Under the pieces are notes generated by a model. It worked only from the letters and a program-made list of their open reading frames with translations, ran no database searches and had not been told where the DNA came from. Source: Myxococcales bacterium (GTDB taxonomy: Bacteria > Myxococcota_A > Polyangia > Polyangiales > DASUME01). From it: 64,000 bases of DNA. Positions within the stretch are counted from its first letter, which is position 1. Every line of letters begins with the position of its first letter. Below are positions 7,251-62,981 of the stretch, piece after piece. The translations under genes and the position numbers were made by a program. The stretch lies in contig JASGJH010000001.1 of NCBI GenBank assembly GCA_047601445.1, positions 5,076,201 through 5,140,200 of the forward strand. The letters run 5' to 3'.

Positions 7251-7253
7251 CTC

Positions 7254-23536: not shown

Positions 23537-23563
23537 GGGGAGGTCGCGTGACCTCCCCGTTTT
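23537..23563 (+). terminator. Copy 2 of the repeat, extended to a 9-bp stem GGGGAGGTC/GACCTCCCC, loop GCGT, followed by GTTTT: intrinsic-terminator-like hairpin
   Basis: Read directly. Lies 93 nt upstream of the copA ATG. Its role as terminator, attenuator or operator is undecided. Confidence 0.45.
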
Positions 23564-23655
23564 ACCAACGCACCTTTTTCGCCGGCCTGGGGTCATGGGC
23601 AGGGTGTAAGGTCAGGGGGTTCTGTGCGTCTTCCTTGCAGAGGAGACCCAGCCCC

Positions 23656-40653: not shown

Positions 40654-42126
40654 TCACTCTCCAAGCGCATAGGCTAGACGGGCCCTCGCAAGGTGGCGCT
40701 CGACGGCCGAGTCGAGCACCTGGAGGCGGGCCGCGTTGAGCTCGTTCTCTGCGGCAAACAGGTCGGCAGTGGTGACGTCGCCCACATGGAGCTCGGCCAT
40801 GCGTCGTTCGTAGGCCGTTTGGGCCGCCGCCTCGGCCGTCCGAGCCGCCTGGGCGCTGCGATTGGCGCGCACGAGTACCGCGCGCGCGTTGCGTACCTCG
40901 AGCGTGAGTGCCTGCTCGAGCTCGGCGAGCTCCGCCTCCAGGGCGTCGATTTGCGCTTCGTTTTCGCGTACCCGCTTGGCGGCACTCCAGCTGTCGTTGG
41001 GCGCATAGCTCACGAGGGCGCCGACCTCCCAGCTGGGCTGATACTCGCTCTTGGGCGGGATCTGATAGCGATTGGGGTTTGCATAGTCGCCTCCGGCGAA
41101 CACGGAAACGTGTGGGTAGCCGTTGGCGCGATTGGCCTTGGCGTTGTGGCGCTGACTCTCGATCAGCTCTGTGAGAGCGCTGATCTCTGCTCGCTGGGCG
41201 CGCGCCTTGCCGAGCAGCAGCGCAGCGGACGCCACCTCGCTGGCGTCCAAGTCGTCGAGAATGGGATCGCCGATTCCGTAGGGTGCGCCGTCGGGGTCCA
41301 GGAGCAAGGTACGCAACGCTGCATCCGCCACGTCGACCGCGGACTCCATGCTCACCACGGTCTGCTCCGCGAGTGCGAGGCGCGCCCCCGAGCTAGCAGC
41401 GTCCGCCGCGGGACGCAGGCCGGCCTTCACACCCGCCTCGATGCGCGCGTGTTGAACCCGCGCCTGCTCCACCGCGCGCTGCGCCACTGCCAGGTTCCCG
41501 CGCGCGCGGGCCAGCTGGTAGTAGGCCTCGCGTGCACTCAGACGCACGCGGTTGAGCTTGGCTCGTGCCTGGGCCTCCGTGGCGCGAGCCGACGCGCGCG
41601 CAGCCTGAATGCTGGGCACCACGGCGAAGAACAGATCGCTCACCGGATACAGCACGCGCGCCGCGAACGCGGTCTGATTTCGTGGGATCACGATGGCCTG
41701 GCCCTGAGCTTGCCGGTCGATACTGGAAAGCCAGAGTGCCCGCGCTGCAGGATCGTTGATCTGCTGGGCCAGCGTGCGGGCCGCATCGGCCGCGGCCGGG
41801 TCGAGCGCGCCGATGCGACTGTTGGGAAAGCCGTCGATGTGCGTGTAGCGCGCGGTGAGCTCGAGGCGTGGCAACAGCTGGGTCCGCGCCCGCTCCACGG
41901 CGGCCTCGGAGGCGCGCACCAGCGCTTCGGCGCGCTCGAGTGCGGGCGAGTTCTCGGTCACCCGGGTGACGGCCTCCTCTGCGCGCAGGGGCTCTCCCTG
42001 TGCGATGGCGCCCATCAGATCGAAACTGGGCACGCTTTCCGACTTGGCATCTTGGGCGGAGCACACACCTCCACCGAGCAGCCAACCTGCGAGGCAGGCA
42101 GCCGCGAGACACTTCTCTTGGCGCAT
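40654..42126 (-). CDS. TolC-family outer-membrane efflux protein
   Basis: ATG 42126 gives the signal peptide MRQEKCLAAACLAGWLLGGGVCSAQD. Two-repeat coiled-coil/beta architecture. 5 nt after the upstream permease stop. Confidence 0.88.
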   Translation of the reverse strand: MRQEKCLAAACLAGWLLGGGVCSAQDAKSESVPSFDLMGAIAQGEPLRAEEAVTRVTENSPALERAEALVRASEAAVERARTQLLPRLELTARYTHIDGFPNSRIGALDPAAADAARTLAQQINDPAARALWLSSIDRQAQGQAIVIPRNQTAFAARVLYPVSDLFFAVVPSIQAARASARATEAQARAKLNRVRLSAREAYYQLARARGNLAVAQRAVEQARVQHARIEAGVKAGLRPAADAASSGARLALAEQTVVSMESAVDVADAALRTLLLDPDGAPYGIGDPILDDLDASEVASAALLLGKARAQRAEISALTELIESQRHNAKANRANGYPHVSVFAGGDYANPNRYQIPPKSEYQPSWEVGALVSYAPNDSWSAAKRVRENEAQIDALEAELAELEQALTLEVRNARAVLVRANRSAQAARTAEAAAQTAYERRMAELHVGDVTTADLFAAENELNAARLQVLDSAVERHLARARLAYALGE

Positions 42127-42131
42127 GATGA

Positions 42132-43280
42132 TTATCCTTGTTGACGACGAAAACGCAGGGCCGCGATGGTGCAGACGACGACACCCATCACGGTCAAGGC
42201 CAGGAATTGAAGACGCAGATCCGAGAGCGTGGCGCCGCGCAGCAAGAGGGCGCGCAGGATCTCGGCGTAGTGGCGCAGGGGATTGATCAACGTGAGCGGT
42301 GCGAGCCACGCCGGCATCGAACGCACGGGCGTCATGATGCCGCTCAGGAGTGCGGCCGGAAGCATGAACAGGAAGCCGCCCATGAAGGCTTGTTGCTGAC
42401 TCGAGCTGACGGTCGAGATCAACAGGCCGATGCTCAAGGTGTTCAGCAGGTAGAGCAGCGTCGCCAGCAGCAAGCTCAGCGGTGAGCCCCGCAAGGGCAT
42501 GTCGAAGCCGTAGGCGCCCACCACCATCGCGAGAATGAAGTCAAACAGACCCACGACGGCGAACGGGATGATCTTGCCCAGCATCAGGAGCAGGGCCGGC
42601 ACCGGGGTCACCTGGATTTGCTCGAGGGTGCCGCGCTCGCGCTCACGCGCCAGGCCCATCGATGCGATGATGGTGGTCACCAACAGAAGCAGCATCGCCG
42701 ACACACCAGGAATCATGTACACGGAGGTCTTGAGCGCCGGATTGAACAGCACGCGCGAGCGCACCGAGACCTCGGGTTGGGGCCTGTGCAGCCCTAGCTG
42801 CGCGGCCCTGAGCGCGCCCTGCTTGCGTGCGCTCGCCTCGGCCTCACGGGCGAAGTAGCTGCTCACGGCCGCGCCGGCCACGTTTGCGCGATTCGGATCG
42901 CTGCCATCCAGCACCATCTGCACACTGGGGCCTCGGCCGCGCACGAGATCGTGCTCGAAGCCGCGTGGCACCACGAGCACCGTGGCCGCCTCACCCGTCT
43001 CCAGCATGCGCAACGCGGTCTGCGGCTCGGCCACATCGCGCACGCGTCGCAGCGTTCCGTCGGCCAGCACACGCTGCAGGTGGCTGCGACTCTGGGTGCT
43101 GTGGTCGAGGTCCACCACCGCGGTGGGGACCTTGTCGACGTCGAGCTGCACTGCGTTGGCGAACAGCACGAGCTGCACGGCCGGGGCGGCCACCAAGAGC
43201 GCCATCATGCGACGGTCGCGCAGGGTCTGGCGCACTTCCTTGAGCATCACGGCGTAGAGCATGCTGAGGGCTCGTCTCAT
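42132..43280 (-). CDS. ABC-2 type transporter permease (YbhR/YbhS-like)
   Basis: ATG 43280 overlaps the upstream stop (ATGA). MRRALSMLYAVMLKEVRQTLRDRRMM, a large extracytoplasmic loop, then 5 C-terminal TM segments. Confidence 0.88.
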   Translation of the reverse strand: MRRALSMLYAVMLKEVRQTLRDRRMMALLVAAPAVQLVLFANAVQLDVDKVPTAVVDLDHSTQSRSHLQRVLADGTLRRVRDVAEPQTALRMLETGEAATVLVVPRGFEHDLVRGRGPSVQMVLDGSDPNRANVAGAAVSSYFAREAEASARKQGALRAAQLGLHRPQPEVSVRSRVLFNPALKTSVYMIPGVSAMLLLLVTTIIASMGLARERERGTLEQIQVTPVPALLLMLGKIIPFAVVGLFDFILAMVVGAYGFDMPLRGSPLSLLLATLLYLLNTLSIGLLISTVSSSQQQAFMGGFLFMLPAALLSGIMTPVRSMPAWLAPLTLINPLRHYAEILRALLLRGATLSDLRLQFLALTVMGVVVCTIAALRFRRQQG

Positions 43281-44410
43281 GCGATGGTCCTCCGAAAACG
43301 CAGGGTGGCAACGCCGAGCATCACGACACCGAAGACCGCCAACATCGCGGCCTCTCCCCACAGTTCGCCGAGGTCGTTGCCGCGCAAGAGCACGCCGCGC
43401 AGCCCGGCCACGTAGTAGCGGGCCGGCACCACACGGCTGACGAACTGCAAGGGCAGCGGCATGTTGTCGATGGGGAACACGAAGCCCGAGAGCAGCATGG
43501 AGGGCAACATCGAGCTCATCGTCGCCACCTGCGTGGCCACCATCTGATTTCGCGTGAGTACGCTGATCAAGAGCCCCTGCCCGAGCATACCCACCAGGAA
43601 CAACAGCGAGAGCACGCCCAGAGCCAACGCCGAGCCACGGAAGGGCACGTTGAACACCAGGCCGCCCGCCGCCACCACCATCAACACCGCCAGCGCCCCC
43701 AACACCAGATAGGGCAAGAGCTTGCCCAGGATGATCTCGAAGCGTCCCACCGGTGTGGCGAACAACTGCGCCATCGAGCCGCGCTCCCACTCGCGCGCCA
43801 CCGTCAGCGCGGTCAGCAGCACCGCCACGATGGCGAGCACGTAGGCGGCGATGCCCGGCACCAGGAACACCGCGCTCTTGCCCTCGGGGTTGAATCGCGT
43901 GAAGGTGCGCACCTCCACCAGCGGCTTGCGTGCGCCCTTGGCCTGCTCGGCTCCGGACAGCGCGAGAAGCTTGAGCGCCACTTCCAGCTTGTTGCGGGCT
44001 TGCACGGCGCTCGTGTTATCGGAGCCGTCGAGCAAGAGCTGCACCCGCGTCGGCTCGCCGCGCACGAGCTCGCGCGCGAAGCCGCGTTCGATGACTACGG
44101 CTGCCAGGCTGCGACCGGCCACCAGGGCGCGCTCCGCTTCGGCGGCGCTCGGCAGGTCGCCTGCATCGTCGAACTGGTCGTCGGCCAAGAGGCGTCGCTT
44201 CAAGCTGCGACTCTGGGTCGTCTGATCCAGGTCCACCACGCTCACCGGCAGGTGATCGAGATCGAAACTCACGCCGAAGCCGAACAGGAGCAGCATCACC
44301 ACCGGCATGGCGAGCGCGATGTACAGGGTGCGCACGTCGCGCAGCACGTGGTGCACCTCTTTATGCGCCAACGCCAGGATACGATTGAGGGTCAAGGACA
44401 GGGCATTCAT
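43277..44410 (-). CDS. ABC-2 type transporter permease (YbhS/YbhR-like)
   Basis: ATG 44410 overlaps the upstream stop (ATGA). MNALSLTLNRILALAHKEVHHVLRDVRTLY. Same architecture as its neighbour. Confidence 0.88.
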   Translation of the reverse strand: MNALSLTLNRILALAHKEVHHVLRDVRTLYIALAMPVVMLLLFGFGVSFDLDHLPVSVVDLDQTTQSRSLKRRLLADDQFDDAGDLPSAAEAERALVAGRSLAAVVIERGFARELVRGEPTRVQLLLDGSDNTSAVQARNKLEVALKLLALSGAEQAKGARKPLVEVRTFTRFNPEGKSAVFLVPGIAAYVLAIVAVLLTALTVAREWERGSMAQLFATPVGRFEIILGKLLPYLVLGALAVLMVVAAGGLVFNVPFRGSALALGVLSLLFLVGMLGQGLLISVLTRNQMVATQVATMSSMLPSMLLSGFVFPIDNMPLPLQFVSRVVPARYYVAGLRGVLLRGNDLGELWGEAAMLAVFGVVMLGVATLRFRRTIA

Positions 44411-45360
44411 GGAGCCTCCGCCGAGGCACTCTTGCTGCGACCCACCACGCCCAGGAAGACGTCCTCGAGCGATGCCTCCACGGGCTCGCAATGCTCCGGC
44501 TGGGCCCCCAGCTTGCGCAGGCCGAGCTCGATTGCGGATCCGTCCGTACCCTTGGGGTCGAAGCGCACGTGCAGGTTGGCACCGAACAGATCCGCAGCCC
44601 GCACGAAGGGCAGTGCGCGCGCCGCGTGCACCACGCGATGGAGATCCTTGCCTTGGAAAGCCAGGGTGGTGCCTGGCACGAAGCTGCGCTTGAGTGCCTC
44701 TGGCGTGTCGAGCGCGAGTAAGGAGCCGTCCACCATCAGGCCCACGCGCGCGCAGTATTCGGCCTCGTCCATGTAGTGCGTGGTCACGAAGATGGTGGTG
44801 CCTTGCGCGGCGAGCTCGCGGATCAGCCGCCAGAACTGACGGCGCGAGAAGGGATCGACGCCGGCGGTGGGCTCGTCGAGGAACACGATGGAGGGCTGGT
44901 GCAGCACGGCACAGGCCAGGGCCAGGCGCTGGCGAATGCCACCCGGCAACTCGGACGTCACGCTCGCGCGGTAGCCGCCGAGCTCGGTGCGCTCGACGGC
45001 GCGATCGATGGCTGCATGCAGTGCCTTGCCGTGGAGCCCGTAGATACCACCGAAGAACTCCAAGTTGTCCTGGGCGTCGAGATCCAAGTAGAGGCTGAAT
45101 TTCTGGGACATGTAGCCGATGGAGGCCTTCACGGCGCCGGGCGCGCGCGCGATGTCGTGGCCCGCCACACTTGCCTGTCCGCCGGAGGGCGCGAGGAGCC
45201 CGCACAACATCCGGATGGTGGTGGACTTGCCCGCGCCGTTGGCTCCGAGGTAGCCGAAGATCTCGCCTCGCTCGACGTGGAAGCTCACGTCGCGCACGGC
45301 CACGAAGGAACCGTAGACCTTGCGCAGGGCGTTAACCTCGATGGGATGCTGGGTGGTCAT
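44407..45360 (-). CDS. ABC transporter ATP-binding protein
   Basis: ATG 45360 (ATGA overlap). Walker A GANGAGKST, signature LPGGIRQRL, Walker B IVFLDEPT. Confidence 0.92.
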   Translation of the reverse strand: MTTQHPIEVNALRKVYGSFVAVRDVSFHVERGEIFGYLGANGAGKSTTIRMLCGLLAPSGGQASVAGHDIARAPGAVKASIGYMSQKFSLYLDLDAQDNLEFFGGIYGLHGKALHAAIDRAVERTELGGYRASVTSELPGGIRQRLALACAVLHQPSIVFLDEPTAGVDPFSRRQFWRLIRELAAQGTTIFVTTHYMDEAEYCARVGLMVDGSLLALDTPEALKRSFVPGTTLAFQGKDLHRVVHAARALPFVRAADLFGANLHVRFDPKGTDGSAIELGLRKLGAQPEHCEPVEASLEDVFLGVVGRSKSASAEAP

Positions 45361-46298
45361 GCGGCGCCTGCTTGCAGTTGGCGCGCCGAGACGCGGGCCA
45401 AGAACACGTCTTCGAAGTCCGGCGCGACCCGCTCCGCCGTGGCGCCGAGCTCCATCACATCGCGCGAAATGGCGGCGCCCGCGCCCGGCGTCGCGAGCAC
45501 ACGCAGGCGCGTCCCCGCAGGCGAGGCCGTGACCACGCCCGGGTGCCCGTTCAACCACGTATGCAGCCGCTCGCGATCGCCGCCCGTGACGGCCAACACG
45601 TCGTACTCGAGCTCCCTTGAGAGCGCGCTGGGCGAGCCCTGGGCGATGATCTGTCCGTGATGGAGGAGACCCACGCGATGGCACCGCGCCGCCTCATCCA
45701 TATAGGCCGTGGAGACCAGCACCGACATGCCCTCGCCGACCAGCTCGTAGATGAGCTCCCACAGCTCGCGTCGGCTCACTGGGTCGACCCCGTTGGTAGG
45801 CTCGTCCATCAAGAGCACGCTCGGCCGATGGAGCAGCGCGCAGGCCAGGGCCAGCTTCTTGTACATGCCGCCACTGAGGGCATCGGCGCGGCGGTCCTCG
45901 AAGCGCGTGAGGCGCGTGATCTCGAGCAGCCGCGCACTGCGCTCGCGGAACGTCTGACGAGAGAGCCCGAACAGACGTGCAAAGAAGCTCAGGTTCTCCG
46001 CCACCGAGAGGTCCCCGTAGAGACTGTATTGCTGCGGCATCAAGCCGAGGTGCTCGCGGGCGCGTGAACGTCGAGCCAGCGGATCCTCGCCGAGCACCCG
46101 CACGTACCCCGCCGTGGGGCGCATCAGGCCCGCCAGGCAGTTGATGGTAGTGCTCTTACCTGCCCCATCGGGCCCCACCAGACCGTAGAGCTCTCCGGGC
46201 GCGACACGCAGGTCGATGCAGCGCACCGCCTCGAGCGCGCCGTACGAGCGCACCAATCCGCAAGCGTCGATGGCCGCCGTTTGACTCGGCGCGTTCAT
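45357..46298 (-). CDS. ABC transporter ATP-binding protein
   Basis: ATG 46298 (ATGA overlap with HlyD stop). Walker A GPDGAGKST, signature LSGGMYKKL, Walker B VLLMDEPT. Confidence 0.92.
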   Translation of the reverse strand: MNAPSQTAAIDACGLVRSYGALEAVRCIDLRVAPGELYGLVGPDGAGKSTTINCLAGLMRPTAGYVRVLGEDPLARRSRAREHLGLMPQQYSLYGDLSVAENLSFFARLFGLSRQTFRERSARLLEITRLTRFEDRRADALSGGMYKKLALACALLHRPSVLLMDEPTNGVDPVSRRELWELIYELVGEGMSVLVSTAYMDEAARCHRVGLLHHGQIIAQGSPSALSRELEYDVLAVTGGDRERLHTWLNGHPGVVTASPAGTRLRVLATPGAGAAISRDVMELGATAERVAPDFEDVFLARVSARQLQAGAA

Positions 46299-47348
46299 GG
46301 CGCCCCCGAGAGGCCCAGGTCGGCCAAGCTCACCACCACCTGCATGCCCGTGCGCAACAGCCCCTTGTGCTCACGCACGCGCACCTCCACCGGATACACC
46401 AGGCGGTCGCGGTCGCTGCGCGTCTGCACGTTGCGCGGTGTGAACTCAGCCTCCAATCCGATGCGCGTCACCTCGGCGCTGAAGTCTCGCTCGGGGTAGG
46501 CATCGGCCCGCACCTGGGCTCGCATGCCCACGCGCGCCGCATCCACATCCGCGTTGGCCAGGTAGAACGTCACGTTGGCCAGCTCGGGATCGATCAAGCG
46601 CGCCACCACCGAGCCCTGCATCACGAGCTCGCCGGATTCGTAGTAGATGCGCTCGAGTACGCCCGCGCGCGGTGCGCGCACGGTGCATTCATCCACGATC
46701 AACTGCGCGCTCGTCACCACCGCCTCCAGGGCGGCCACGCTGCGCTCGGCGGCGCTCACCTGGGCCAGCGCCGCCTGGGCCTGTGCGGAAGCCGCGCCCG
46801 CCTGACGACGGCTCACGAGCTCCGAGGCCGCCGCCGCGCGCTGACGCTCGAGCAACTCCGAGGCCGTGACCTTGGCGCGGTCCCTGGACGACAGTGCGGC
46901 GTACTCGCCCATGGCCTCCATGCGCTCGGCGTCGCGCGCCGCCAGCTCCTGCTGCGCCGAGAGCGCACCGAGCTGGGCTCCCACGGCCTGAATCGAAGCC
47001 GCCGCCGCCGAGCTCTGCCCGCGCGCCGCCAGGGCCTGCGACTTGGCACCCAGCACCTGCGCCCGCGATGCCTCCAGGCGCGCGAGGGCCTCCGCGAGGC
47101 GCGCCTCGTGCTCGGAGCACTCCAGGCTCAAGATGGGATTGCCGGCCTGCACCGTGAAGCCCTCCCTGGCGTGCACCTGCTTCACCCGGGCGGACAGGCG
47201 CGAGCCGAGAATCGATGCCCTCGGCCTCCACCACACCGGAACCGGACGCCGGGCCCGACTCGGCCTTGCCCTGGGCACGAATGCGCCAAGCGATGAGTCC
47301 GATCAGGACCCCCGTCAGCACCACCATTACGCTGAGAACTCGTTTCAT
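46295..47348 (-). pseudogene. HlyD-family membrane-fusion protein interrupted by an apparent +1 frameshift near 47208..47213 (true pseudogene, sequencing indel or recoding not distinguishable)
   Basis: N-terminus MKRVLSVMVVLTGVLIGLIAWR..GVVEAEGID is in the frame of ORF 46689..47693. The rest, LGSRLSARVKQVHAREGFTVQAG.., is in ORF 46295..47278, 1 nt out of phase. Deleting one T in sense-strand GAT-T-CTC restores one 350-aa MFP. Confidence 0.75.
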
Positions 47349-47440
47349 CGGACATGGCTCCGGTCGTTGAACGACGCGCCGCGAGGAGCTCCCCTGCGGT
47401 CGTCTCGAGCGCCCGTCGTCGAGGCGCAACACCCCCCAGT

Positions 47441-47455
47441 GCGACCTTCGTGCCA
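47441..47455 (-). promoter_or_regulatory. Candidate sigma-54 promoter (-24/-12) for the efflux operon
   Basis: The minus strand reads TGGCACGAAGGTCGC (consensus TGGCAC-N5-TTGC, one mismatch, correct GG-N10-GC spacing), 93 nt upstream of the HlyD ATG. A GAFTGA-containing activator is encoded divergently. Confidence 0.4.
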
Positions 47456-47632
47456 ACTCGTTCGCTTGATTGAATCGCCGCAAAATCAGCCTGTTCTGCC
47501 ACCCCACGGGCGACCTCCGGAGTTGCCCCCAGTCGATGTGTCTGGGTTTCCGGACAGTCGCTTTCCGGGCCCCCAGACAGCCGCCGCCCATGGCGCACTG
47601 GTACACTCGCAACGAATGCGCGCCCTTCACCC

Positions 47633-49036
47633 GTGGGAAGTCCGTTGAACCGCCCTCCGCCACACGCCCTGGCTGCGACCCGTCCGCTCTCACGCAGCGC
47701 GCTCGACGTGATGTTCGCCAAGGTCGTGGTGGCGCGCCTGGTGATCGCTCCTTCTCTCGGCTCGCTGGCGCTGACGTTCGCCTTCTTCGAGCCCACCCCC
47801 TGGCGTAAGTGGCTGATCGGCTCGGGCGTGACCAGCTTGTTCCTGCTCTCGCTGGTGGAGTGGTTCCGGTATCGCAAGTTCGGACCCGAGTCGGTGCACG
47901 TGCCGTTCAACGTGTGGCTGACCATCATCGTCCAGCTCTGCGTGATCACCGCCACCGGCGGGCTCTTCAGTCCCGCACTGCCCGTGGTCATCATGATGGC
48001 GTTCCTCGCCGCGACCCTCGGCGAGCGGCGCATCTTGCGCGGCCTGTTGGCCTTGGCGCTGCCCGCGGGCTTTGGGCTGGCCTACATCCATCGCTGCGCC
48101 ACACCCGTGCCCAGCCTGATTCCCGAGCTGTTCGGTGGCGCCCAGCCCATCGAGCACGGGCCCGCTCCGTGGATCGCAGCCACCGCGTTCACCGCCATGC
48201 TGCTGATCGCGGCGCGCGTGGGCCTGGTGCTCCAGGGTGTATTCGAGAGCCTCTACGGGGACGCCGTGCAGGCCCGTGACCGCTCGCTCGCGCTGCACGC
48301 CGAGCAGAGCCGCGTGATCACGTTGATGAGCAGCGAGATCGCCCACGAGCTCAAGAACCCGCTGGCCAGCCTCAAGGGCCTGGGCGCACTGGTGGCCAAG
48401 GACGTCGAGGGGCGCACCGCAGAGCGCGTGAAGGTGCTGCGCGGCGAGGTCGACCGCATGCAGTCGATCCTGGAAGGCTTCCTCACGTTCTCGCGGCCGC
48501 TCGTGCCCCTGAGCGTCGCCGAGCACGACTTGAGCGAGCTCACCTGCGACGTGGCGCGCTTGCACGAGGGCATCGCGGGCGAGCGCAGCCTCGGCATCGC
48601 CGTCGAGGCTCCCGAGCGCACGCTGGCGCGCTGCGATATCCGCAAGGTGCGCCAGGTCCTGATCAACCTGGTCCAGAACGCCCTCGATGCCAGTCCCGAC
48701 GGTGGCAAGGTGCTGTTGCGCGTGAGGCCCACGGCAGGAGGCGTCAACATCACTATCGTCGACGAAGGCCCTGGCCTCTCCCCGGAGATCGCCGAGCGCG
48801 TGTTCGAGCCCTTCGTGAGCGACAAGGAGCACGGTTCGGGCGTCGGATTGGTGGTGGCACGCTCGCTGGCGCGACAGCACGGCGGCGACGTGGTGCTGAC
48901 ACCTCGGAGGGGAGCCCGCGGACTCGAAGCCGAGCTCCGCTTGCCGCTCACACCGCCGCTCGAGCCGAGTACCGCGTCCCTGCCCAACGAATCTCTCCCC
49001 AACGCAGCCCTGCCCAGCAACGGAACGAATCCATGA
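47633..49036 (+). CDS. Sensor histidine kinase with polytopic membrane N-terminal domain
   Basis: About 6 TM segments, H-box SSEIAHELKNPL, N box LINLVQNALDA, G boxes DEGPGL / GSGVGL. Start is GTG 47633 or ATG 47711. Confidence 0.88.
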   Translation: MGSPLNRPPPHALAATRPLSRSALDVMFAKVVVARLVIAPSLGSLALTFAFFEPTPWRKWLIGSGVTSLFLLSLVEWFRYRKFGPESVHVPFNVWLTIIVQLCVITATGGLFSPALPVVIMMAFLAATLGERRILRGLLALALPAGFGLAYIHRCATPVPSLIPELFGGAQPIEHGPAPWIAATAFTAMLLIAARVGLVLQGVFESLYGDAVQARDRSLALHAEQSRVITLMSSEIAHELKNPLASLKGLGALVAKDVEGRTAERVKVLRGEVDRMQSILEGFLTFSRPLVPLSVAEHDLSELTCDVARLHEGIAGERSLGIAVEAPERTLARCDIRKVRQVLINLVQNALDASPDGGKVLLRVRPTAGGVNITIVDEGPGLSPEIAERVFEPFVSDKEHGSGVGLVVARSLARQHGGDVVLTPRRGARGLEAELRLPLTPPLEPSTASLPNESLPNAALPSNGTNP

Positions 49037-50364
49037 CCCCACGCATCCTCGTGGTCGACGACGACCAAGCCCTGCGCTTCACGCTGCGCGGCATCCTGGA
49101 GGACGCAGGCTACGCGGTGGATGAAGCCGCCGACGGCGCGCTCGCCCTGGCCAAAGTCGAGGCCGGCGGCGGCTACCACCTGGTGCTGAGCGATCTGCGC
49201 ATGCCCAACGTGGATGGCCTCGCGCTGCTCGAGCGCCTCAAGTCCCAGCACCCGAGCCTGCGCGTCATCATGATCACGGCCCACGGCTCCGAGCGGGCCG
49301 CCGTGGAGGCCATGAAGCGCGGCGCCTACGACTACTTTCGCAAGCCCTTCGAGCCCGAAGAACTGCTGGCCGTGGTGGAGCGCGCGGTGGAGTCGGTGCG
49401 CCTCAGCTCCGACAACGAGCGCCTCGGCGCCGAGCTCCTGCTCTCACGCTCCATGGTGTTCGCCTCACCTGCCATGCGCCAGCTCGCGGTGCTGGTGCAG
49501 CGCGTGGCCAGTAAGGACGTCACAGTGCTGATCAGCGGCGAGAGCGGCACCGGGAAAGAGCGCCTGGCCGAGGCCCTGGTGCGCGGGAGCACCCGCAGCA
49601 CACGCCCCTTCGTGCGCTTCAACTGCGCTGCCATCACACCCGACCTGGCGGAGGCGGAGCTGTTCGGACACAGCAAGGGCGCGTTCACGGGTGCGATCCG
49701 ACAGCGCAGTGGCCTCTTCCGCGAGGCTCACACCGGCACGCTGTTCTTGGACGAAGTCGCGGAGCTCGACCTACGCACTCAGGCCAAGCTCCTGCGCGTC
49801 CTACAGGAGGGCGAGGTACGTCCCGTGGGCGAAGACCACCCGTTCTCCGTCGACGTCCGCATTCTGGCCGCCACCCACCGCAACCTCGAGCAGTGCGTAC
49901 GCGATGGCAGCTTCAGAGAAGATCTATTCTATCGCCTCAAGGTAGTGCATCTCAGCTTGCCTCCGTTGCGCGATCGCAAGGAAGACATCGAGGTGCTTGC
50001 CGCACACTTCCTGGCCGAATTCAGCGCCCGCTTCGGCGCTGGGCCCTTCTCGCTGACCGCAGAGCTGCGCACACGACTTGCTAGCTACCGCTGGCCTGGC
50101 AACGTGCGCGAGCTCGGCAATGCCATCGAGAGCCTGGTGGCCCTCTCCCCGACCGATCGGCTCGATCCCGACCTCTTGCCGGGCGATCGTCCCGACGGCT
50201 CGAGCGCCCAGCGCGCCACCCTCGAGCATCGCCTGCTCGCGTATGAACGCGGCTTGCTGGTGGAGGCCATCGATGCCGCCGACGGCAACCGCAGCGAGGC
50301 CGCCAAGCTGCTCGGCATCGGGCGCGCCACGCTCTACGAGAAGCTCCGCAAGCACGGGCTGTAG
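49033..50364 (+). CDS. Sigma-54-dependent response regulator (NtrC family)
   Basis: Receiver domain (ILVVDDD..SDLRMP), AAA+ domain with GESGTGKE and GAFTGA, C-terminal Fis-type HTH (NRSEAAKLLGIGRATLYEKL). ATGA overlap with the kinase gene. Confidence 0.93.
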   Translation: MTPRILVVDDDQALRFTLRGILEDAGYAVDEAADGALALAKVEAGGGYHLVLSDLRMPNVDGLALLERLKSQHPSLRVIMITAHGSERAAVEAMKRGAYDYFRKPFEPEELLAVVERAVESVRLSSDNERLGAELLLSRSMVFASPAMRQLAVLVQRVASKDVTVLISGESGTGKERLAEALVRGSTRSTRPFVRFNCAAITPDLAEAELFGHSKGAFTGAIRQRSGLFREAHTGTLFLDEVAELDLRTQAKLLRVLQEGEVRPVGEDHPFSVDVRILAATHRNLEQCVRDGSFREDLFYRLKVVHLSLPPLRDRKEDIEVLAAHFLAEFSARFGAGPFSLTAELRTRLASYRWPGNVRELGNAIESLVALSPTDRLDPDLLPGDRPDGSSAQRATLEHRLLAYERGLLVEAIDAADGNRSEAAKLLGIGRATLYEKLRKHGL

Positions 50365-50409
50365 CCTCTACTCCTGGCTGGGGCCTGCTCCACACGCGCA
50401 CGCCCGCTT

Positions 50410-50424
50410 CGGCACGGCTCCTGC
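50410..50424 (+). promoter_or_regulatory. Candidate sigma-54 promoter for the multicopper oxidase gene
   Basis: CGGCACGGCTCCTGC: GGCAC-N5-CTGC with correct GG-N10-GC spacing. Followed by GGAGGA (50440..50445) and ATG 50449. Confidence 0.35.
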
Positions 50425-50448
50425 TCTTCGATCCGCTTCGGAGGACGA

Positions 50449-51862
50449 ATGGAGGCGCAGATGCGGGGGCGGCGAGCGGTGTGGATGGCGGTGCTAGCCA
50501 GTGTCGGACTCGTTGGTTGTAGTGACGATGGAGGCTCGGGCTTCGCGTACAAGAAGGGCCTGCCGTTCTCGGAACCCAAGGAATTCCACAGCGAGAACGG
50601 CGTGACCTCCGTGCAGCTCCTGTCGAAGGAAACCGCGGTGGACATCAGCGACGCCACCGTGAAGGGGACGGTCTACAACGGCGCATTCGTGGGACCCACG
50701 CTGCATGTGGCGCCTGGAGAGACCCTGCGTGTGCACCTGCAAAACGACCTCAAGCAGCACACGAACATCCACTATCACGGCATGCACGTGTCCCCCGAGG
50801 GCAACAGCGACAACATCTTCCTCATGATCGAGCCGGGCGAGAGCTTCGACTACCAGCTCGACATCCCGGCCGACCACGACGTGGGCACCTTTTGGTACCA
50901 CTCACACTCGCACATGGACTCCGAGAGCCAGGTGTTCGGCGGTCTCTCGGGTGTGCTCATCGTGGACGGCCTCGAGCAGAAGCTCCCCGAGGCCTATCGC
51001 GGCATCACTCAGCACGTGTTCGCGCTCAAGGACCTGCAGGTGAAGGACGGCACCATCATCGCCGACAACATCAACTCGGACGCGCCCACGGTTCGCACGG
51101 TGAACGGCCTGGTGGAACCCACGCTCGAGATCGCGCCCGGGGAGACGCAGCTGTGGCGCCTTGCCAACATCAGCGCGGACATCTTCTACGACCTGAGCTT
51201 TGCCACGCAGCCCCTGGTGGTCATCGCCGAAGATGGCAACCCCGTGGAGAAGCTGTGGACGGCGATGGATTCTGGTCCTGCCGCCCGGTAAGCGCTTCGA
51301 CGTGGTCGTCACGGCCCCGACCACCGCTGGCGACTATACGCTCGAGACCTTGGCCTATGACCAGGGCGGAGACATGTATCCGCAGGCCACGCTCGTGAAC
51401 GTGAAGGTCACGGGTGCGATGGCCCCGGCACTGCCTCCGCTTACCGAAGGCCTTGCCCCCGACGACGGGCTTACCTCACCTGATGCCGTGGTGGCGCAAA
51501 CCCGCCAGTTCGTGTTCACCGAGGACGACGACTCCAATCAGTTCTTCATCAACGGCAAGCAGTTCGACATGAACCGCATCGACGCGCTGCCCAAGCTCGG
51601 CACCATCGAGGAATGGACGGTGATCAACAACACCTCGGAGCAGCACCCCTTCCACATCCACATCAACGACTTCAAGGTCCTCTCCATCAACGGCGTCCCG
51701 TACCAGGCCAACGGTGAGCAAGACACGGTGGTGATGCCGCCCGGCGGACAGGCGGTCATCCGCATGGCTTTCCTGGATTTTACGGGCAAATTCGTCTTCC
51801 ACTGCCACATCCTGGCCCACGAGGACGGCGGCATGATGGCGGTCGTAGACGTGGTGCCGTGA
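50449..51862 (+). pseudogene. Multicopper oxidase (Tat/lipoprotein-type signal) interrupted by an apparent +1 frameshift near 51268..51274
   Basis: ORF 50449..51291 carries MRGRRAVWMAVLASVGLVGC, HYHGMHV and WYHSHSH. ORF 51200..51862 (+1 phase) carries LVLPPGKRFDVVV, HPFHIHINDF and HCHILAHEDGGMM. Deleting one T in GAT-T-CTG joins them. Confidence 0.75.
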
Positions 51863-51962: not shown

Positions 51963-52532
51963 ATGACCAAGCAAGATCTCGATGTGATCGTTGTGGGTGA
52001 TGGGCCGGGAGGCTTGAGCGCTGCGCTGTTTCTGGCCAAGTCCGGGCTGCGAGTCGTGGTGTACGGGCAGGACAAGACCGCCATGCACTGGGCGCTGCTG
52101 AAGAACTACCTCGGCGTGCCCGAGATGCTCGGCAGCGAGTTCCAGCGTCTTGCGCGCGAGCAGGTCACCACGTTCGGGGGGCGCATCGAGGCGGCGCGTG
52201 TGGAGAGCGTCGCACACGACGCGGGTAGCTTCGAAGTCACTCTCGAGGGTGGACCCAAGGTGCAGTCGCGCTTCTTGATCCTCTCGGAGGGCAAGTCGCC
52301 GCGCCTCGCGCAGCAGCTCGCGCTGGCGAACGACCCCTCCGGTGCCGTGAAGGTGGACATCAACGGCAAGACCTCGCTCGCGGGTGTGTACGCGGTGGGG
52401 CGCCTCGCACGGCCGGATCGCAGTCAGGCCATCATCAGCGCCGGCGATGGAGCCGCGGCCGCCATCGACATCCTCTCGAGCATCAAGGGCGAAGCAGTGC
52501 AGGACTGGGACTCGCCGCCCGAGCAGAAGTAG
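51963..52532 (+). CDS. Short FAD-dependent oxidoreductase (thioredoxin-reductase-like FAD domain only)
   Basis: DVIVVGDGPGGLSAALFLAKSG (GxGxxG) and C-terminal GVYAVGR......QAIISAGDGAAAA. Only 189 aa, with no NADPH domain and no CxxC. Confidence 0.7.
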   Translation: MTKQDLDVIVVGDGPGGLSAALFLAKSGLRVVVYGQDKTAMHWALLKNYLGVPEMLGSEFQRLAREQVTTFGGRIEAARVESVAHDAGSFEVTLEGGPKVQSRFLILSEGKSPRLAQQLALANDPSGAVKVDINGKTSLAGVYAVGRLARPDRSQAIISAGDGAAAAIDILSSIKGEAVQDWDSPPEQK

Positions 52533-55356: not shown

Positions 55357-56328
55357 CTACTTGTTCACGCGATCGCAGGTGGGGTAAGGCCCGCAGGTCG
55401 AGAAGTCGCGAAACCACTTCTGAACGATCGACCCGTCAGGATTGCGGTCGTGCGTGGCCTCGAGCACCTCGAGTAGATGAGCCCGCGACATGGCGAGCGG
55501 TGCCTCGTAGGGCACGTAGGTGGTGCCCACCGGGTAGTCCGCGTACGGCCCCTTCTGCTCGATATGTGTGCCCAGCACGTGCGTCACGATCTTGTCGCTG
55601 GTGAAGTCGACCAGGCGTTGCGCACTGGCGGCGAAGACCTCGGGGTCGCCGTTGACGTAGATGCGACCGGGGTAGAGAGAGTCGCCCGTCAACAGCACAC
55701 CGGTCTGCCGGTCGTAGACCGCAATGCTCGTCACGTCGTGGCCGGGGACGGGGATGATATCGAGCACGCGCCCGCCGAGATCATAGGCCACCACGCTGTT
55801 CGGCCACTGCGTGATGCCGAACGCTTGCTGCAGCGCGGCCACGCTCCCGTTGGGGATCAACGTGACGTTGGGCAGATCGGTGAACTGATAGTCGCCGTAA
55901 GTGTGATCGCCATGGGAGTGCAGGTGGGTGACCACCAGCGGGATCGAACGTCGCTTGTGCTTGATCAACCAGAGGGCCATCACCTTCTTCACGGCGCCCG
56001 CGACGTCGGGTGCACCCGCCACCGACGTCGAGCCGGCACCGGTGTCGAACAAGATGGCCTTGTCTTTCCCGAAGAGCAGATACAGGAACGGCTTCTCATC
56101 GTTCACACAGCCCGACTCACGCAGGATGTAGAAGTCGTCGTTGTACGCGTGCACCTGGAACTCGGGCGAAAAGCGAGTGCAGTGAGGGCTTCCCGAGCTC
56201 CAAGCCGCAGGCAGCGCGCCGGGCACGACCTCGGCCACCGTATCGGCTGCGCGGGAGGTGGGGGAGAGCGACGTGAGCGCCAGAGCAAACGCGGCGCAGC
56301 CAGAAACCAGGCGATTTTTCCAAGACAT
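55357..56328 (-). CDS. Secreted MBL-fold metallo-hydrolase
   Basis: ATG 56328 gives the signal peptide MSWKNRLVSGCAAFALALTSLSPTSRA. HxHxDH motif in VVTHLHSHGDHTYGD. Confidence 0.8.
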   Translation of the reverse strand: MSWKNRLVSGCAAFALALTSLSPTSRAADTVAEVVPGALPAAWSSGSPHCTRFSPEFQVHAYNDDFYILRESGCVNDEKPFLYLLFGKDKAILFDTGAGSTSVAGAPDVAGAVKKVMALWLIKHKRRSIPLVVTHLHSHGDHTYGDYQFTDLPNVTLIPNGSVAALQQAFGITQWPNSVVAYDLGGRVLDIIPVPGHDVTSIAVYDRQTGVLLTGDSLYPGRIYVNGDPEVFAASAQRLVDFTSDKIVTHVLGTHIEQKGPYADYPVGTTYVPYEAPLAMSRAHLLEVLEATHDRNPDGSIVQKWFRDFSTCGPYPTCDRVNK

Positions 56329-56466
56329 GGGAGATGACACCTCATCTTTCGAACAACTGTCGAAACGATGGTTTTCTCCCATACTCAATTTTAGAATGTG
56401 TTTCGAAACGGATAATTGGAACGCATCAACCGCGCAGCGCGCTGCACGCCGCTCGTGTGCTCTCTC

Positions 56467-57243
56467 TCACGGTACGCCTTCGGTCACCAGCTGTTGAATG
56501 CGCGTGCGATGCGTGGACTTGGGGAAATCCTTCCCGAAGGCCTGCGCGCGTTGAGCCGCTGCGGGCTGCTTGCCGGTACGCACGAGCGCTTCGATGGCGA
56601 GCACCTCGCGCTCTTCGGCGAAGGCTCCACGTGGATACTCACGTGCATGCTCCTCGGCCAGCTCGAGCGTGCGACCGGGGTCGGCCAGGAGCACACGGCG
56701 CGCCCGCATCAAGATGGAGAGCTCGGCCGCCGGGTCGTGCTTTTCGACCTCGGGCGTGACGGTGGGCAGCTCGGCGGGCTTGACGCGCGCCTTCTTCTCC
56801 GCGCGCCTCACGGGCTGCTCGAGCGGTACAGGCGCAGGATCCACGCTCCGCTCGGGCCGGGCAGACAAGGCCTGCACAGAGGGATCTTCCACGGGCTGGG
56901 CAGGTTGGATCGGAACCACGATGGACGGAGCCTTGGGTTCCTGACGCGCCCAGTACATGCCGAGCAATCCGACCAGCGTGATCAGCATGCCGAACTTCAG
57001 GAGCGTGCCACTCCGCACGGACTTCACCGGACGAGGCGGACTCGGCGGTGCCGTCTCGGCAGCCGCTGCGGCCTCGGCAGCCAGGCGAGCCGAGAGCTCG
57101 GTGAACATACGCACCCGCTGATCGCCGTTGGGACCCACCTTGGCCTCGTGCGCGAGACCCAGGGCCACCGTCCGCCAATCGTCATCGCGCTCGAGCCAGC
57201 GCGGGGGGGCTTGACGTGGCTCATCCCGCACTCCTCTTCGCAT
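56467..57243 (-). CDS. Anti-sigma factor (single TM, periplasmic helical domain)
   Basis: ATG 57243 (or GTG 57231) overlaps the ECF sigma gene end. Cytoplasmic N-terminus, TM LLKFGMLITLVGLLGMYWA, Pro-rich linker, C-terminal helical-repeat-like domain. No HxxxCxxC zinc motif. Confidence 0.65.
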   Translation of the reverse strand: MRRGVRDEPRQAPPRWLERDDDWRTVALGLAHEAKVGPNGDQRVRMFTELSARLAAEAAAAAETAPPSPPRPVKSVRSGTLLKFGMLITLVGLLGMYWARQEPKAPSIVVPIQPAQPVEDPSVQALSARPERSVDPAPVPLEQPVRRAEKKARVKPAELPTVTPEVEKHDPAAELSILMRARRVLLADPGRTLELAEEHAREYPRGAFAEEREVLAIEALVRTGKQPAAAQRAQAFGKDFPKSTHRTRIQQLVTEGVP

Positions 57244-57787
57244 AGGCACGCCGCTGTTGCGCCGCCTGAACCTTTTGTACGAAGCGCTGAATCTCCTCAC
57301 GCGCCGCGTACAAACGCGAGAGCGCCGTGCTCTCGGGAACATCGAGACTCGCTGCCACCTCGGCCATGGTGAGCCCCTCGAGCTCGTACAGCGCGAACAC
57401 CTCGCGCTTATCGTCGTCCATGCGCGTGAGCGCTTCGGCCGCCAGCTCCAGTACCTGCTTCTGCGAAGCGAGGTCGAAGGCCGTGACCAGCGAGGTCCCC
57501 GACGTGTGCTCACTCTCCTCGATATCGAGCACCTCGCGCCGGAGATGGGCCTTGCGCCGATGGCCGAGCGCCACACGCGCCGCGATACCGTAGACCCACG
57601 TGCGCATGCTGGAACGCCCCTCGAACTCGGGTAGCCTGCGATGCACCACCAAGAACACTTCCTGACAAGCGTCCTCGAGCTCGCGCTCAGGCACCCCGTG
57701 GCGCTTGAGCACGCGCCACACGAAGTCCACGTGCTCGGCGAAGAGCACATGGAAGTTCGTGCGAAGCTCGTGGACGTTGGGGTTCAT
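57221..57787 (-). CDS. ECF (group 4) sigma-70 family sigma factor
   Basis: ATG 57787. Region 2 FVWRVLKRHGV...LEDACQEVFLVVHRRL..F and region 4 REVFALYELEGLTMAEVAASLDVPESTALSRL. Confidence 0.9.
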   Translation of the reverse strand: MNPNVHELRTNFHVLFAEHVDFVWRVLKRHGVPERELEDACQEVFLVVHRRLPEFEGRSSMRTWVYGIAARVALGHRRKAHLRREVLDIEESEHTSGTSLVTAFDLASQKQVLELAAEALTRMDDDKREVFALYELEGLTMAEVAASLDVPESTALSRLYAAREEIQRFVQKVQAAQQRRAYAKRSAG

Positions 57788-59109
57788 TGGGGGAAGTCGA
57801 AGCGCGCTAGCTGATGAGTGGAGGTCAGGGCGTACACGGCATTGTCGTTGCCAGCGACCAGCTCGTAGGGAGCGATGCCCGGCACCAGCACGCAGCTCAC
57901 CTGCTGCGCGTCGTTCATCCGGCAAAGCGTGGCGGTCTGGGCGTCGCGCTCACCCGTGGAGGTGATCAAGTAGCTGCCTCCAACACGGTCTGGGGCCTGC
58001 TTGGAAACCGTCATCAGCGTGAACCCCACACGTTGTAGGAGCACTTCATCGACGCCCGCGTCATTCACGCGCATCCAATGGATGTCCCCGACCAAATCGT
58101 CAGGTGTCGCCACCACCACGCGCCCCGCAGAGTCAGCGGACAGGCTAACGGAAGCGCCGCCGCCGAAATAGCCCCTGGACAAGACATTGCCGGTCTTCCA
58201 GTCGAGATCCGAGACTTGCATCGCCCATTCGTACGTGGAGTCATCGCCCGACAGGGTTACCGGTTTTCCGTCCTTCGCGGGAGAAGCATTCAGAAAGTCC
58301 GTTCCCAGCTTTCTGTTGACCACCGTGAGCACGTCGGAGCTCTTCAAGAACGCGATCGCTTCGTTCGGTGAACCCTCGATCGGAATCTCCCCCAGCGCAC
58401 CTTGCTGCCAGCTAGCGTGACCGTCCGCCGAGGTCCGTTGCGCGATCATTCCTGCCTTGAAGCCGAGAAACATGAAGTTCGAACTCGTGGGATCGCGCTG
58501 CGCCGAACTGAGCGCCCCAAACTCGTGGAAGAAGCGCGTCGCCGGCTCCTGAGCCGTCGCCCCGAGCGCGATGAACTCGTGCCAGATGGCACCACTTCCA
58601 TCGGCATGGCCGACACAGTTCCAGGCCCAGCGCGTGCTGAACACGGAGTCCTGGCCTCCCATGAGGCCGTAGAGCGAGAGGACTGAGCCCTTGTCGTCGA
58701 TCTTTCCGTCGCAAGGAAGCTTGGCCGCGGGCATGCCGATGTCCTGGCTCCCGAGTTCCTTCTCGGCATCGAACTGGCGTACCTTGAACGTGAACTGTCC
58801 GTCCTGCTTCTGCACGACCCAGACGGTGCCGTTGGCGCCCGCAGTGAGGATGACTTCAGTGGTGTCCGTCGAACCGAGGTCCCAGGTGGTGGTCGGGCTC
58901 AAGGTCGGCAGGTCCCGCATCGGATAGGTCGCAACCAGGTTCGCCGCCCCCAGGCTTTCCGCCTTGGGCAGCTCGCAGCTCGACTCGATGCACGGTTCCT
59001 TCATGTTGCCGATGTTTCCCTGGTCTCCACAGGCCACGATCGACAGCGCCCATAGCGCACCGCGACCCGCCACCCAGCAACTGCCCTTGCCCTGTCCCAT
59101 TCGCTTCAT
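57784..59109 (-). CDS. P-family lipoprotein paralog P1 (unknown function)
   Basis: MKRMGQGKGSCWVAGRGALWALSIVAC lipobox. Shares the motif and Cys framework with P2-P4 and ends ARFDFPQ. Its stop overlaps the ECF sigma ATG (ATGA). Confidence 0.75.
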   Translation of the reverse strand: MKRMGQGKGSCWVAGRGALWALSIVACGDQGNIGNMKEPCIESSCELPKAESLGAANLVATYPMRDLPTLSPTTTWDLGSTDTTEVILTAGANGTVWVVQKQDGQFTFKVRQFDAEKELGSQDIGMPAAKLPCDGKIDDKGSVLSLYGLMGGQDSVFSTRWAWNCVGHADGSGAIWHEFIALGATAQEPATRFFHEFGALSSAQRDPTSSNFMFLGFKAGMIAQRTSADGHASWQQGALGEIPIEGSPNEAIAFLKSSDVLTVVNRKLGTDFLNASPAKDGKPVTLSGDDSTYEWAMQVSDLDWKTGNVLSRGYFGGGASVSLSADSAGRVVVATPDDLVGDIHWMRVNDAGVDEVLLQRVGFTLMTVSKQAPDRVGGSYLITSTGERDAQTATLCRMNDAQQVSCVLVPGIAPYELVAGNDNAVYALTSTHQLARFDFPQ

Positions 59110-59135
59110 GCCCGTTCGTGCGGGTCACTTGGCCT

Positions 59136-59158
59136 TTCCTCGAAACTTTTCTCGCTCT
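59136..59158 (-). promoter_or_regulatory. Conserved leader box A upstream of P1 (sense strand AGAGCGAGAAAAGTTTCGAGGAA)
   Basis: The 23-mer is identical to 61588..61610 although the P1 and P2 coding sequences are strongly diverged. Confidence 0.5.
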
Positions 59159-59172
59159 GGCCCTTCTTCCCT

Positions 59173-60240: not shown

Positions 60241-60301
60241 CGAGCCGCTATGTAGCAAAGCGAAGCAGGTTCTTCACTAGGTCTCGCCGCGCTACGAAAC
60301 C

Positions 60302-61567: not shown

Positions 61568-61587
61568 GCGTGCAGCTGGGCGCATCG

Positions 61588-61610
61588 TTCCTCGAAACTT
61601 TTCTCGCTCT
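61588..61610 (-). promoter_or_regulatory. Conserved leader box A upstream of P2
   Basis: Identical 23-mer to 59136..59158, lying between the P3 stop (61627) and the P2 start. Confidence 0.5.
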
Positions 61611-61626
61611 CTCCGAGTGGCCAGCG

Positions 61627-62928: not shown

Positions 62929-62948
62929 GCGTGCAGTCACGCGCATCG

Positions 62949-62969
62949 TTCCTCGAGATTTCGCGCGCT
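62949..62969 (-). promoter_or_regulatory. Diverged copy of leader box A upstream of P3 (sense AGCGCGCGAAATCTCGAGGAA)
   Basis: Same position relative to the start codon. The adjacent CGATGCGC..CTGCACGCATGGGC block is nearly identical to the P2 leader. Confidence 0.4.
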
Positions 62970-62981
62970 GGGCGCTCGATT

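Follow-up and report, generated by a model that had tools for sequence, protein, structure and literature searches.

The window, a stretch of 64,000 nucleotides from a Myxococcales bacterium, contains a sensor histidine kinase gene and an NtrC-family sigma-54 activator gene side by side, and this pair is flanked by two sigma-54-dependent units, the first a divergent efflux operon encoding an adaptor, ABC proteins and an outer-membrane factor, the second a multicopper oxidase gene with a small flavoprotein gene. The features of the locus are as follows.

40654..46298, minus strand: rest of the efflux operon, encoding two ABC ATPases, two ABC-2 permeases and an outer-membrane factor (OEP), all domains complete
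46295..47348, minus strand: HlyD-family membrane-fusion (periplasmic adaptor) gene, 350 aa after removal of one T, break at codon 46/47
47216..47206, minus strand: 11-base context of the HlyD site that is shared with the oxidase, ATCGATTCTCG
47208..47213, minus (coding) strand: GATTCT of the HlyD site, the surplus T relative to all orthologues being 47210 or 47211
47440..47455, minus strand: sigma-54 -24/-12 box TGGCACgaaggTCGCA ahead of the HlyD operon, kept in 15 of the 15 orthologous loci checked
47633..49036, plus strand: sensor histidine kinase gene (HisKA and HATPase_c), start codon uncertain, apparently intact
49033..50364, plus strand: NtrC-family sigma-54 activator gene (receiver, Sigma54_activat and HTH_8), apparently intact
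50410..50425, plus strand: sigma-54 -24/-12 box cGGCACggctcCTGCT, its distance to the ATG of the oxidase being 52 nt
50449..51862, plus strand: three-domain multicopper oxidase gene with a lipoprotein-type signal (LVGC), 470 aa after removal of one T, break at codon 275/276
51265..51275, plus strand: 11-base context of the oxidase site that is shared with the HlyD gene, ATGGATTCTGG
51268..51273, plus strand: GATTCT of the oxidase site, the surplus T relative to orthologues being 51270 or 51271
51963..52532, plus strand: 189-aa FAD-binding Pyr_redox_2-like gene, next after the oxidase, of the same length and in the same position in the related loci L081, L082 and L083

The adaptor carries HlyD domains and an N-terminal anchor, and its operon also encodes two ABC_tran, two ABC2_membrane_3 and one OEP protein, an order (adaptor, two ABC ATPases, two ABC-2 permeases, outer-membrane factor) like that of tripartite ABC efflux systems of the YbhGFSR or MacAB-TolC type. 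The neighbouring kinase and NtrC-family activator genes, with -24/-12 promoters before their presumed targets, likewise resemble sigma-54 two-component systems such as ZraSR and AtoSC; unlike both sets of systems, all NCBIfam equivalog scores here lie far under their cut-offs. The oxidase has the three domains and the copper-ligand motifs of CueO/CopA-like enzymes (HYHGMH, WYHSH, HPFHIH and HCHILAHEDGGMM), and since it scores 157 bits against the CueO equivalog, where the cut-off is 525, we treat it as a member of the family and not as CueO itself. The initial annotation had proposed candidate sigma-54 promoters before both genes, and -24/-12 boxes are indeed present there and conserved in relatives: a TGGCAC-N5-sTGCT box stands at equal distance before the oxidase in L081, L082 and L083. 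Given the GG-N10-GC boxes, their conservation and the adjacent gene for an enhancer-binding protein, the conserved sigma-54 promoters ahead of both operons are, as judged from sequence, real. Only in the window and in its nearest relative, L082, does the oxidase unit adjoin the kinase/activator pair.

Two frame breaks in a shared context

Both flanking genes are broken by a +1 shift at the same motif, AT(S)GAT-T-CT(S)G, a claim of the initial annotation that the sequence and its reading frames confirm. In the HlyD gene the codons at the break are GGC ATC GAT TCT CGG (47219..47205, minus strand), directly after the N-terminal membrane anchor; the N-terminal frame reads ..EGIDSRLAPVRPG.. and the rest of the protein lies one base out of phase, as ..LGSRLSARVKQVH... 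This N-terminal frame meets no early stop past the shift and continues as an open reading frame (46689..47693), about 170 codons of it out of frame. The oxidase codons are GCG ATG GAT TCT GGT (51262..51276, plus strand), the N-terminal frame ends ..WTAMDSGPAAR at a stop (51289..51291) 7 codons past the shift, and the remainder, with ..LVLPPGKRFDVVV.., HPFHIHINDF and HCHILAHEDGGMM, again follows one base out of phase. Skipping one T restores, as had been claimed, continuous and family-typical proteins of 350 aa (HlyD) and 470 aa (oxidase) with full domain coverage: the corrected adaptor has complete HlyD_3 and HlyD_D23 matches, the corrected oxidase complete Cu-oxidase_3, Cu-oxidase and Cu-oxidase_2 matches, and the corrected codons, GAT CTC and GAT CTG respectively, both read Asp-Leu. 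Apart from the surplus T, neither gene carries any other lesion.

The annotation had called for a comparison with orthologues, and the relatives lack the extra base at both sites. The orthologous HlyD loci, about 50 in number, have (V/I)D-L-x-SR at the site and no surplus base, and about 118 further HlyD homologues are full length, the sole truncated entry being the window's own. Oxidase orthologues read WTAMDL(V/I)(L/M)PPGKRFD at the site, with P0001-P0004 and L081-L083 in frame, and none of the roughly 170 relatives is broken at these sites. The nearest relatives keep the intact decamer at orthologous positions (ATCGATCTCG in L082, ATGGATCTCG in L081); L082 is a syntenic locus, 78-88% identical and in frame at the site. 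Nor did we see relaxed constraint or secondary lesions past the breaks, as identity is alike before and after the shift (0.80 vs 0.81 for the oxidase against P0001, 0.93 vs 0.88 for HlyD against P0121) and the downstream operon genes are complete, although a real pseudogene event, if very recent, would leave no decay either. Pattern scans of metagenome contigs found neither allele.

Apparent breaks elsewhere were also considered. The truncated oxidase homologue P0042 was rejected as a conserved frameshift, since it is in frame through the site and broken at two other places. The 189-aa Pyr_redox gene is ruled out as a third frameshift by its equal length in L081-L083. The oxidase break in L082 falls in a C run.

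How alike are the two sites? Anchored on the indel, 9 of 11 positions are common to both, with a chance probability of p ~4e-4, or ~1e-3 if both positions must be doubled bases, which bears out the earlier remark that pure coincidence is the less attractive view. Beyond the 11-mer there is no similarity, with 6 of 19 flanking positions matching, about the random expectation. The 11-mer ATSGATTCTSG occurs 2 times in the window and 0 times in 1.3 Mb of related loci, where the decamer ATSGATCTSG is found intact 18 times (Fisher p = 0.005). In the window the two sites that would be decamers are both altered, leaving 0 intact, while at least 5 near-misses (9/10 match) are all unaltered, as are 360 GATC, 137 GATCT and 64 SGATCTS sites. 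Since the GATC and SGATCTS sites are unaffected, whatever acts systematically must require the entire 10-mer; were the looser SGATCTS the target, both events would fall on sites with the full flanks about 1 time in 2145. This pattern points to a deterministic, k-mer-specific process, that is, to one context-specific cause, and the two sites hint that every decamer copy might be affected. GATTCT itself was rejected as an error mark, a copy at 17276 sitting within an intact E2 catalytic domain.

Origin of the extra base

The extra T's are most likely absent from the organism's DNA, and we give about an even chance to a motif-specific consensus error made twice. Such an error would recur at each decamer AT(S)GATCT(S)G of an assembly that is clean elsewhere. 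Both genes would then be intact, with GAT CTC and GAT CTG as their true sequences; we infer a cause in sequencing or base-calling, not one in the cell. A one-base correction restores both proteins, the insertion recurs in an identical 11-mer context, and the identical decamer favours systematic error over real mutations. The errors that persist in long-read bacterial assemblies after polishing are described as systematic base-calling errors common to many reads and sometimes tied to motifs (PMC8442456), and the systematic indels found in such assemblies by IDEEL-type checks look much like ours: a one-base indel splits an otherwise perfect gene whose relatives are intact, and it recurs within an identical context with no other lesion. 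Here, unlike there, we find no homopolymer and no recognised short methylation motif, and the full 10-mer seems to be needed.

Some observations weaken this reading. Homopolymers hold >80% of residual long-read errors (PMC8442456), whereas the context at our sites is a mere TT doublet. Moreover, about 45 other domain-bearing open reading frames in the window are without a break in Pfam or NCBIfam scans (complete domains), so the assembly is not generally error-prone; overlapping same-strand pairs have ordinary start codons at their junctions, and a generally poor assembly was rejected on both grounds. Of the annotation's case for a systematic indel, then, the identical decamer stands, but its rationale, an error set off by methylation of GATC (Dam-type) or GANTC, is unsupported, the 360 GATC, 137 GATCT and 64 SGATCTS sites being intact; in the portion of the nanopore methylation literature drawn on here, methylation-linked errors are mainly substitutions. 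Under a sequencing error, the position of the two sites, 4 kb apart and in both operons beside one regulator, would also have to be put down to chance, at roughly 0.05 to 0.1.

Rather unlikely, in our judgement, are two independent, real and very recent T duplications, each knocking out the first gene of a sigma-54-dependent unit, whether because expression of the regulon was selected against, in culture or in a new niche, or through neutral loss; the shared decamer would then be a coincidence or an unrecognised mutational hotspot. This second explanation of the annotation survives, as does the first. The assembly is otherwise clean in the window, and the site lacks the homopolymer in which long-read errors typically fall (PMC8442456). 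The two hits are also functionally coherent: each gene stands nearest the promoter in a conserved sigma-54 unit, and with HlyD broken at codon 46 the adaptor would be lost and the six-gene operon uncoupled. Two pseudogenes per ~60 genes is, moreover, within the normal range for large genomes. Against it stands above all the same base inserted in a context shared at 9/11 positions (p ~4e-4 to 1e-3 if independent), the evidence that turns the balance toward systematic error, and no mutational process known to us inserts a single T with a specificity of 10 bp. Cas9-like or restriction cuts with end joining, and fill-in at restriction sites, were dropped from first principles, as was a template switch from one 11-mer to the other, inverted and 4 kb away, since a single T is not predicted there. 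The genes resemble unitary frameshift pseudogenes in their broken frame and predicted truncated product; they are unlike them in having no relaxed constraint or secondary lesions, either in themselves or in the downstream genes, in both events falling in one decamer, and in there being no broken counterpart among the ~170 relatives.

Quite improbable, we think, is a real base or backbone modification at the decamer that makes the sequencing polymerase or base-caller stutter, so that the artefact would report a genuine and unusually long modification motif. The effect does appear specific to the full 10-mer, but the window yielded no modification gene, the motif lacks a palindrome, and n = 2 sites only. 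Known type II motifs are shorter than this and known type I motifs are bipartite. Modification-linked systematic errors as such are documented for long-read platforms (PMC8442456), and also in the part of the nanopore methylation literature noted above.

Could the shift instead be decoded by the ribosome? The annotation had offered programmed +1 recoding at GAU-UCU as a third explanation, and we regard programmed or tolerated recoding that yields regulated full-length proteins from both sigma-54 units as very unlikely indeed. In a Ty3-like mechanism a wobble-paired tRNA-Asp would occupy the P site, the rare UCU the A site, and an abundant tRNA-Leu would bind CUC or CUG out of frame; alternatively, a four-base decoding tRNA would read GAUU. 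The annotation's argument from codon rarity holds, UCU standing at 1.8 per 1000 codons (~3% of Ser codons) and the +1 codons CUC and CUG, at 47 and 44 per 1000, being the commonest codons, so that a slow 0-frame A-site codon is followed by an abundant +1 codon and a one-base skip restores the protein, as at known programmed +1 sites (bacterial prfB/RF2 CUU-UGA-C, yeast Ty3 GCG-AGU-U). The slow codon is the sole feature of such sites that fits, although the site is identical in two co-located and probably co-regulated genes, the predicted trans-frame products match the orthologues exactly and neither gene has decayed past the shift. Sites of the prfB type are conserved in orthologues, have a P-site codon that re-pairs in the +1 frame and carry an upstream Shine-Dalgarno-like stimulator, and here none of these was found: every orthologue examined is in frame, L082 included, the GAU-reading tRNA-Asp cannot re-pair with AUU, and no Shine-Dalgarno-like element is shared, a GGAGG lying upstream in the HlyD gene only. 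Folding of the downstream 94 nt does not exceed that of shuffled sequence (z -0.25 and +0.33), and the upstream hairpins (z -1.24 and -2.24) share no sequence. The common frame and strand of the two sites were rejected as a sign of a translational mechanism, since codon usage alone predicts them (13 of the 18 natural decamers lie in that same frame), and the window contains no tRNA genes or known RNA elements.

Consequences for the regulon and the genome

It is hardly credible, then, that the extra T is real and that the 11-mer AT(S)GAU-U-CU(S)G is a recent, lineage-specific +1 recoding signal, possibly genome-wide, gating the proteins of a stress regulon, those from the two sigma-54 units among them; such a signal would have to be recent because relatives at ~80-88% protein identity lack it. 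If true, recoding would be the only reading of broad importance, and we call it unlikely. If, on the other hand, the cause is a motif-specific error, each decamer in the 9.5-Mb genome may carry a false frameshift. By extrapolation from the 18 per 1.3 Mb of related loci this comes to roughly 130 sites, mostly in genes, each giving rise to a spurious pseudogene, and one pattern search would be enough to locate and correct them. If the insertions are real, the ABC efflux pump and the copper oxidase, the two outputs of a conserved sigma-54 two-component regulon, would just have been lost, a loss of interest to those studying this lineage. The frameshifts aside, our analysis documents a sigma-54-dependent operon of adaptor, ABC proteins and outer-membrane factor, with its kinase and activator, across genomes of Polyangiales, Sandaracinaceae and Anaeromyxobacter.

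Two frame breaks beside one regulatory pair

Our analysis confirms the observation itself, and the anatomy of the locus is sound: sequence and frames at both GATTCT breaks match the initial annotation. In the HlyD-family adaptor gene the minus strand reads GGC ATC GAT TCT CGG (47219..47205); the N-terminal frame translates to MKRVLSVMVVLTGVLIGLIAW...VVEAEGIDSRLAPVRPG, and the remainder, from LGSRLSARVKQVH... through the stop codon at 46295, follows in a phase shifted by one base. After the shift the 0 frame meets no quick stop and continues to 46689 (ORF 46689..47693). The multicopper oxidase gene reads GCG ATG GAT TCT GGT (51262..51276); its 0 frame (..WTAMDSGPAAR*) ends seven codons after the site, and the third cupredoxin domain (HPFHIHINDF and HCHILAHEDGGMM) is found in the +1 phase. 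Removing one T from each TT restores both proteins, giving a 350-aa adaptor with complete Pfam coverage of HlyD_3 and HlyD_D23 and a 470-aa oxidase with complete coverage of Cu-oxidase_3, Cu-oxidase and Cu-oxidase_2.

Features around the two breaks (window coordinates)
46295..47348, minus: HlyD-family adaptor gene, broken
Downstream of the adaptor gene, minus: two ABC ATPases, two ABC-2 permeases and an outer-membrane factor, all complete
47455 to 47440, minus: -24/-12 box TGGCACgaaggTCGCA, upstream of the adaptor operon
47633..49036: histidine kinase, between the two broken genes, domains complete
49033..50364: NtrC-family sigma-54 activator, between the two broken genes, domains complete
50410..50425, plus: -24/-12 box cGGCACggctcCTGCT, 52 nt upstream of the oxidase ATG
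50449..51862, plus: multicopper oxidase gene, broken
51963-52532, plus: FAD-binding protein of 189 aa, thioredoxin-reductase-like, 3' of the oxidase

The window sequence is of high quality, and its only two breaks have one decamer in common, ATSGATCTSG when intact and the 11-mer ATSGATTCTSG with the extra T. In Pfam or NCBIfam scans the domains of ~45 other window ORFs are complete, overlapping same-strand ORF pairs have normal start codons at their junctions, and no third frameshift was found among these ORFs.

The sites in related genomes

The window is part of a 9,502,601-bp contig from a member of the Myxococcota, and a scan of metagenome contigs for either allele found no same-species sequence. 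The extra T, which the initial annotation had proposed to look for in orthologues, is absent from every orthologue compared at both sites. About 50 orthologous adaptor genes encode (V/I)-D-L-x-S-R across the site in a single frame (GTC GAC CTC GCG TCC CGT in the related locus L001), and ~118 other adaptor homologues are ~340-380 aa long, the sole truncated entry being the window's own; P0018 and P0122 in the protein collection are the window's own two gene fragments. At the site the closest oxidases have the sequence WTAMDL(V/I)(L/M)PPGKRFD, with GAC CTG, GAC TTG or GAT CTC at the orthologous DNA positions. The decamer is uninterrupted in the nearest relatives: ATCGATCTCG in the adaptor gene of L082, the locus closest to the window, and ATGGATCTCG in the oxidase gene of a further relative, L081.

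The oxidase genes of these two loci have frameshifts of their own, two stray single-base insertions in L081 (10001-11400) and a deletion in a C run in L082 (5079-6475), all elsewhere than the window's site. They look like ordinary metagenome-assembly errors, unlike the motif-linked T of the window. L081 also has FIST-domain genes flanked by two reverse-transcriptase (RVT_1) genes at 1393-7666, some kilobases upstream of its oxidase.

Identity to orthologous proteins is 0.93 before the shift versus 0.88 after it for the adaptor (P0121), and 0.80 versus 0.81 for the oxidase (P0001). Equal identity on either side, together with intact downstream operon genes, implies that the events are very recent, are not real, or are translated through.

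Origin of the extra T's

Aligned on the indel, the two sites have 9/11 positions and the inserted base in common, for which random pairs of window positions give p ~4e-4, or ~1e-3 if both must be doubled bases, a small value that is to be discounted since the first-stage scan presumably picked this case for its coincidence. No likeness extends outside the 11-mer, where the 6/19 matching flanking positions are about the random expectation. In 1.3 Mb of related loci we count 18 intact decamers (~0.9 per 64 kb) and no 11-mer, versus no intact decamer and two 11-mers in the window (Fisher p = 0.005). All five 9/10-position matches to the decamer in the window are intact, as are its 64 SGATCTS and 360 GATC sites. 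Were the looser SGATCTS the target of the process, full flanks at both breaks would be expected about once in 2145; hence the decamer counts as a whole, or else the match is coincidence. The common frame and strand of the two sites are uninformative, given that 13/18 natural decamers lie in the frame ATS GAT CTS G.

A motif-specific consensus error would explain both extra T's, and we give this reading roughly half of our confidence. Residual long-read errors are systematic base-calling errors common to many reads and are motif-linked in some genomes, and >80% of them fall in homopolymers (PMC8442456). A systematic error here needs a non-homopolymer context, and also two decamers 4 kb apart, in two operons beside one regulator, a coincidence of roughly 0.05-0.1. 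The alternative that both insertions are real, very recent null mutations seems to us possible, though rather unlikely: independent mutations would share the decamer by a coincidence of ~1e-3, and no mutational process known to us duplicates a single T with a specificity of 10 bp. Error and real mutation thus both require one coincidence.

A 9-bp inverted repeat, UCAUCGCCG ... CGGCGAUGG (51221-51268, plus), ends directly before the oxidase GATTCT; its fold has z = -2.24, with 6/200 shuffles as good, and the hairpin before the adaptor site is weaker (z = -1.24). Such hairpins could affect the behaviour of the polymerase or the base-caller. That the artefact is due to a real site-specific modification of the DNA we consider quite improbable.

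Least probable, and by our estimate very much so, is programmed +1 frameshifting at GAU-UCU, whose codon premise (UCU rare, the +1 Leu codon abundant) holds by codon counts (1.8 per 1000 for UCU, 47 for CUC, 44 for CUG), but the shift is missing in every orthologue, including that of syntenic L082 (78-88% protein identity), no re-pairing of GAU with AUU is possible, GGAGG lies upstream in the adaptor gene only, folding downstream of the sites is no better than that of shuffles (z -0.25 and +0.33), and the window holds no tRNA or Rfam element. Orthologues, P-site pairing, GGAGG, folds and tRNA/Rfam elements thus give no sign of a programmed site, and with no common stimulator the recoding suggested initially is unsupported. 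If the T's are real, Ty3-like out-of-frame binding could allow low-level leakiness.

The regulatory module and its surroundings

Several features elsewhere in the window can be recorded. A P1B-type heavy-metal ATPase whose N-terminus carries YHS and HMBD metal-binding domains (23443-26166, plus) is encoded 25 kb away from the copper oxidase. An apparent MoaD(ThiS)-MoaE fusion ORF (14952-15692, plus) has both domains complete in one frame, and for an aldehyde dehydrogenase ORF with a complete domain (9110-10714, minus) a TTG at 10687 is the sole candidate start close to where the upstream gene ends. The GC3 coding signal is weaker in 56000-64000 than in the remaining window; several long minus-strand ORFs there, 57784-59124, 59173-60273, 61627-63234 and 62982-63998, have no Pfam match, the last two no NCBIfam match either, and 57221-57949 encodes an ECF sigma factor.

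The 189-aa FAD protein, unchanged in length and place in L081 (11467-12036), L082 (6519-7088) and the related L083 (2597-3166), aligns with TrxR models only over roughly their first 114 and last 40 positions, and seems from these alignments to be without an NADPH domain.

The adaptor, ABC genes and outer-membrane factor form a YbhGFSR/MacAB-like tripartite exporter operon. Candidate sigma-54 promoters, initially placed on both sides of the regulatory pair, are well supported by boxes recurring in relatives: that of the adaptor operon (TGGCAC-N5-TCGCA) is kept in 15/15 orthologous Myxococcota loci inspected among L001-L082, and TGGCAC-N5-sTGCT stands at equal distance from the oxidase in L081, L082 and L083. 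Linkage of the oxidase unit to the kinase/activator pair is confined to the window and L082. The pair and the divergent efflux operon are kept across Polyangiales, Sandaracinaceae and Anaeromyxobacter genomes, and the box before the adaptor/ABC efflux operon defines a widespread module of kinase, sigma-54 activator and efflux system.
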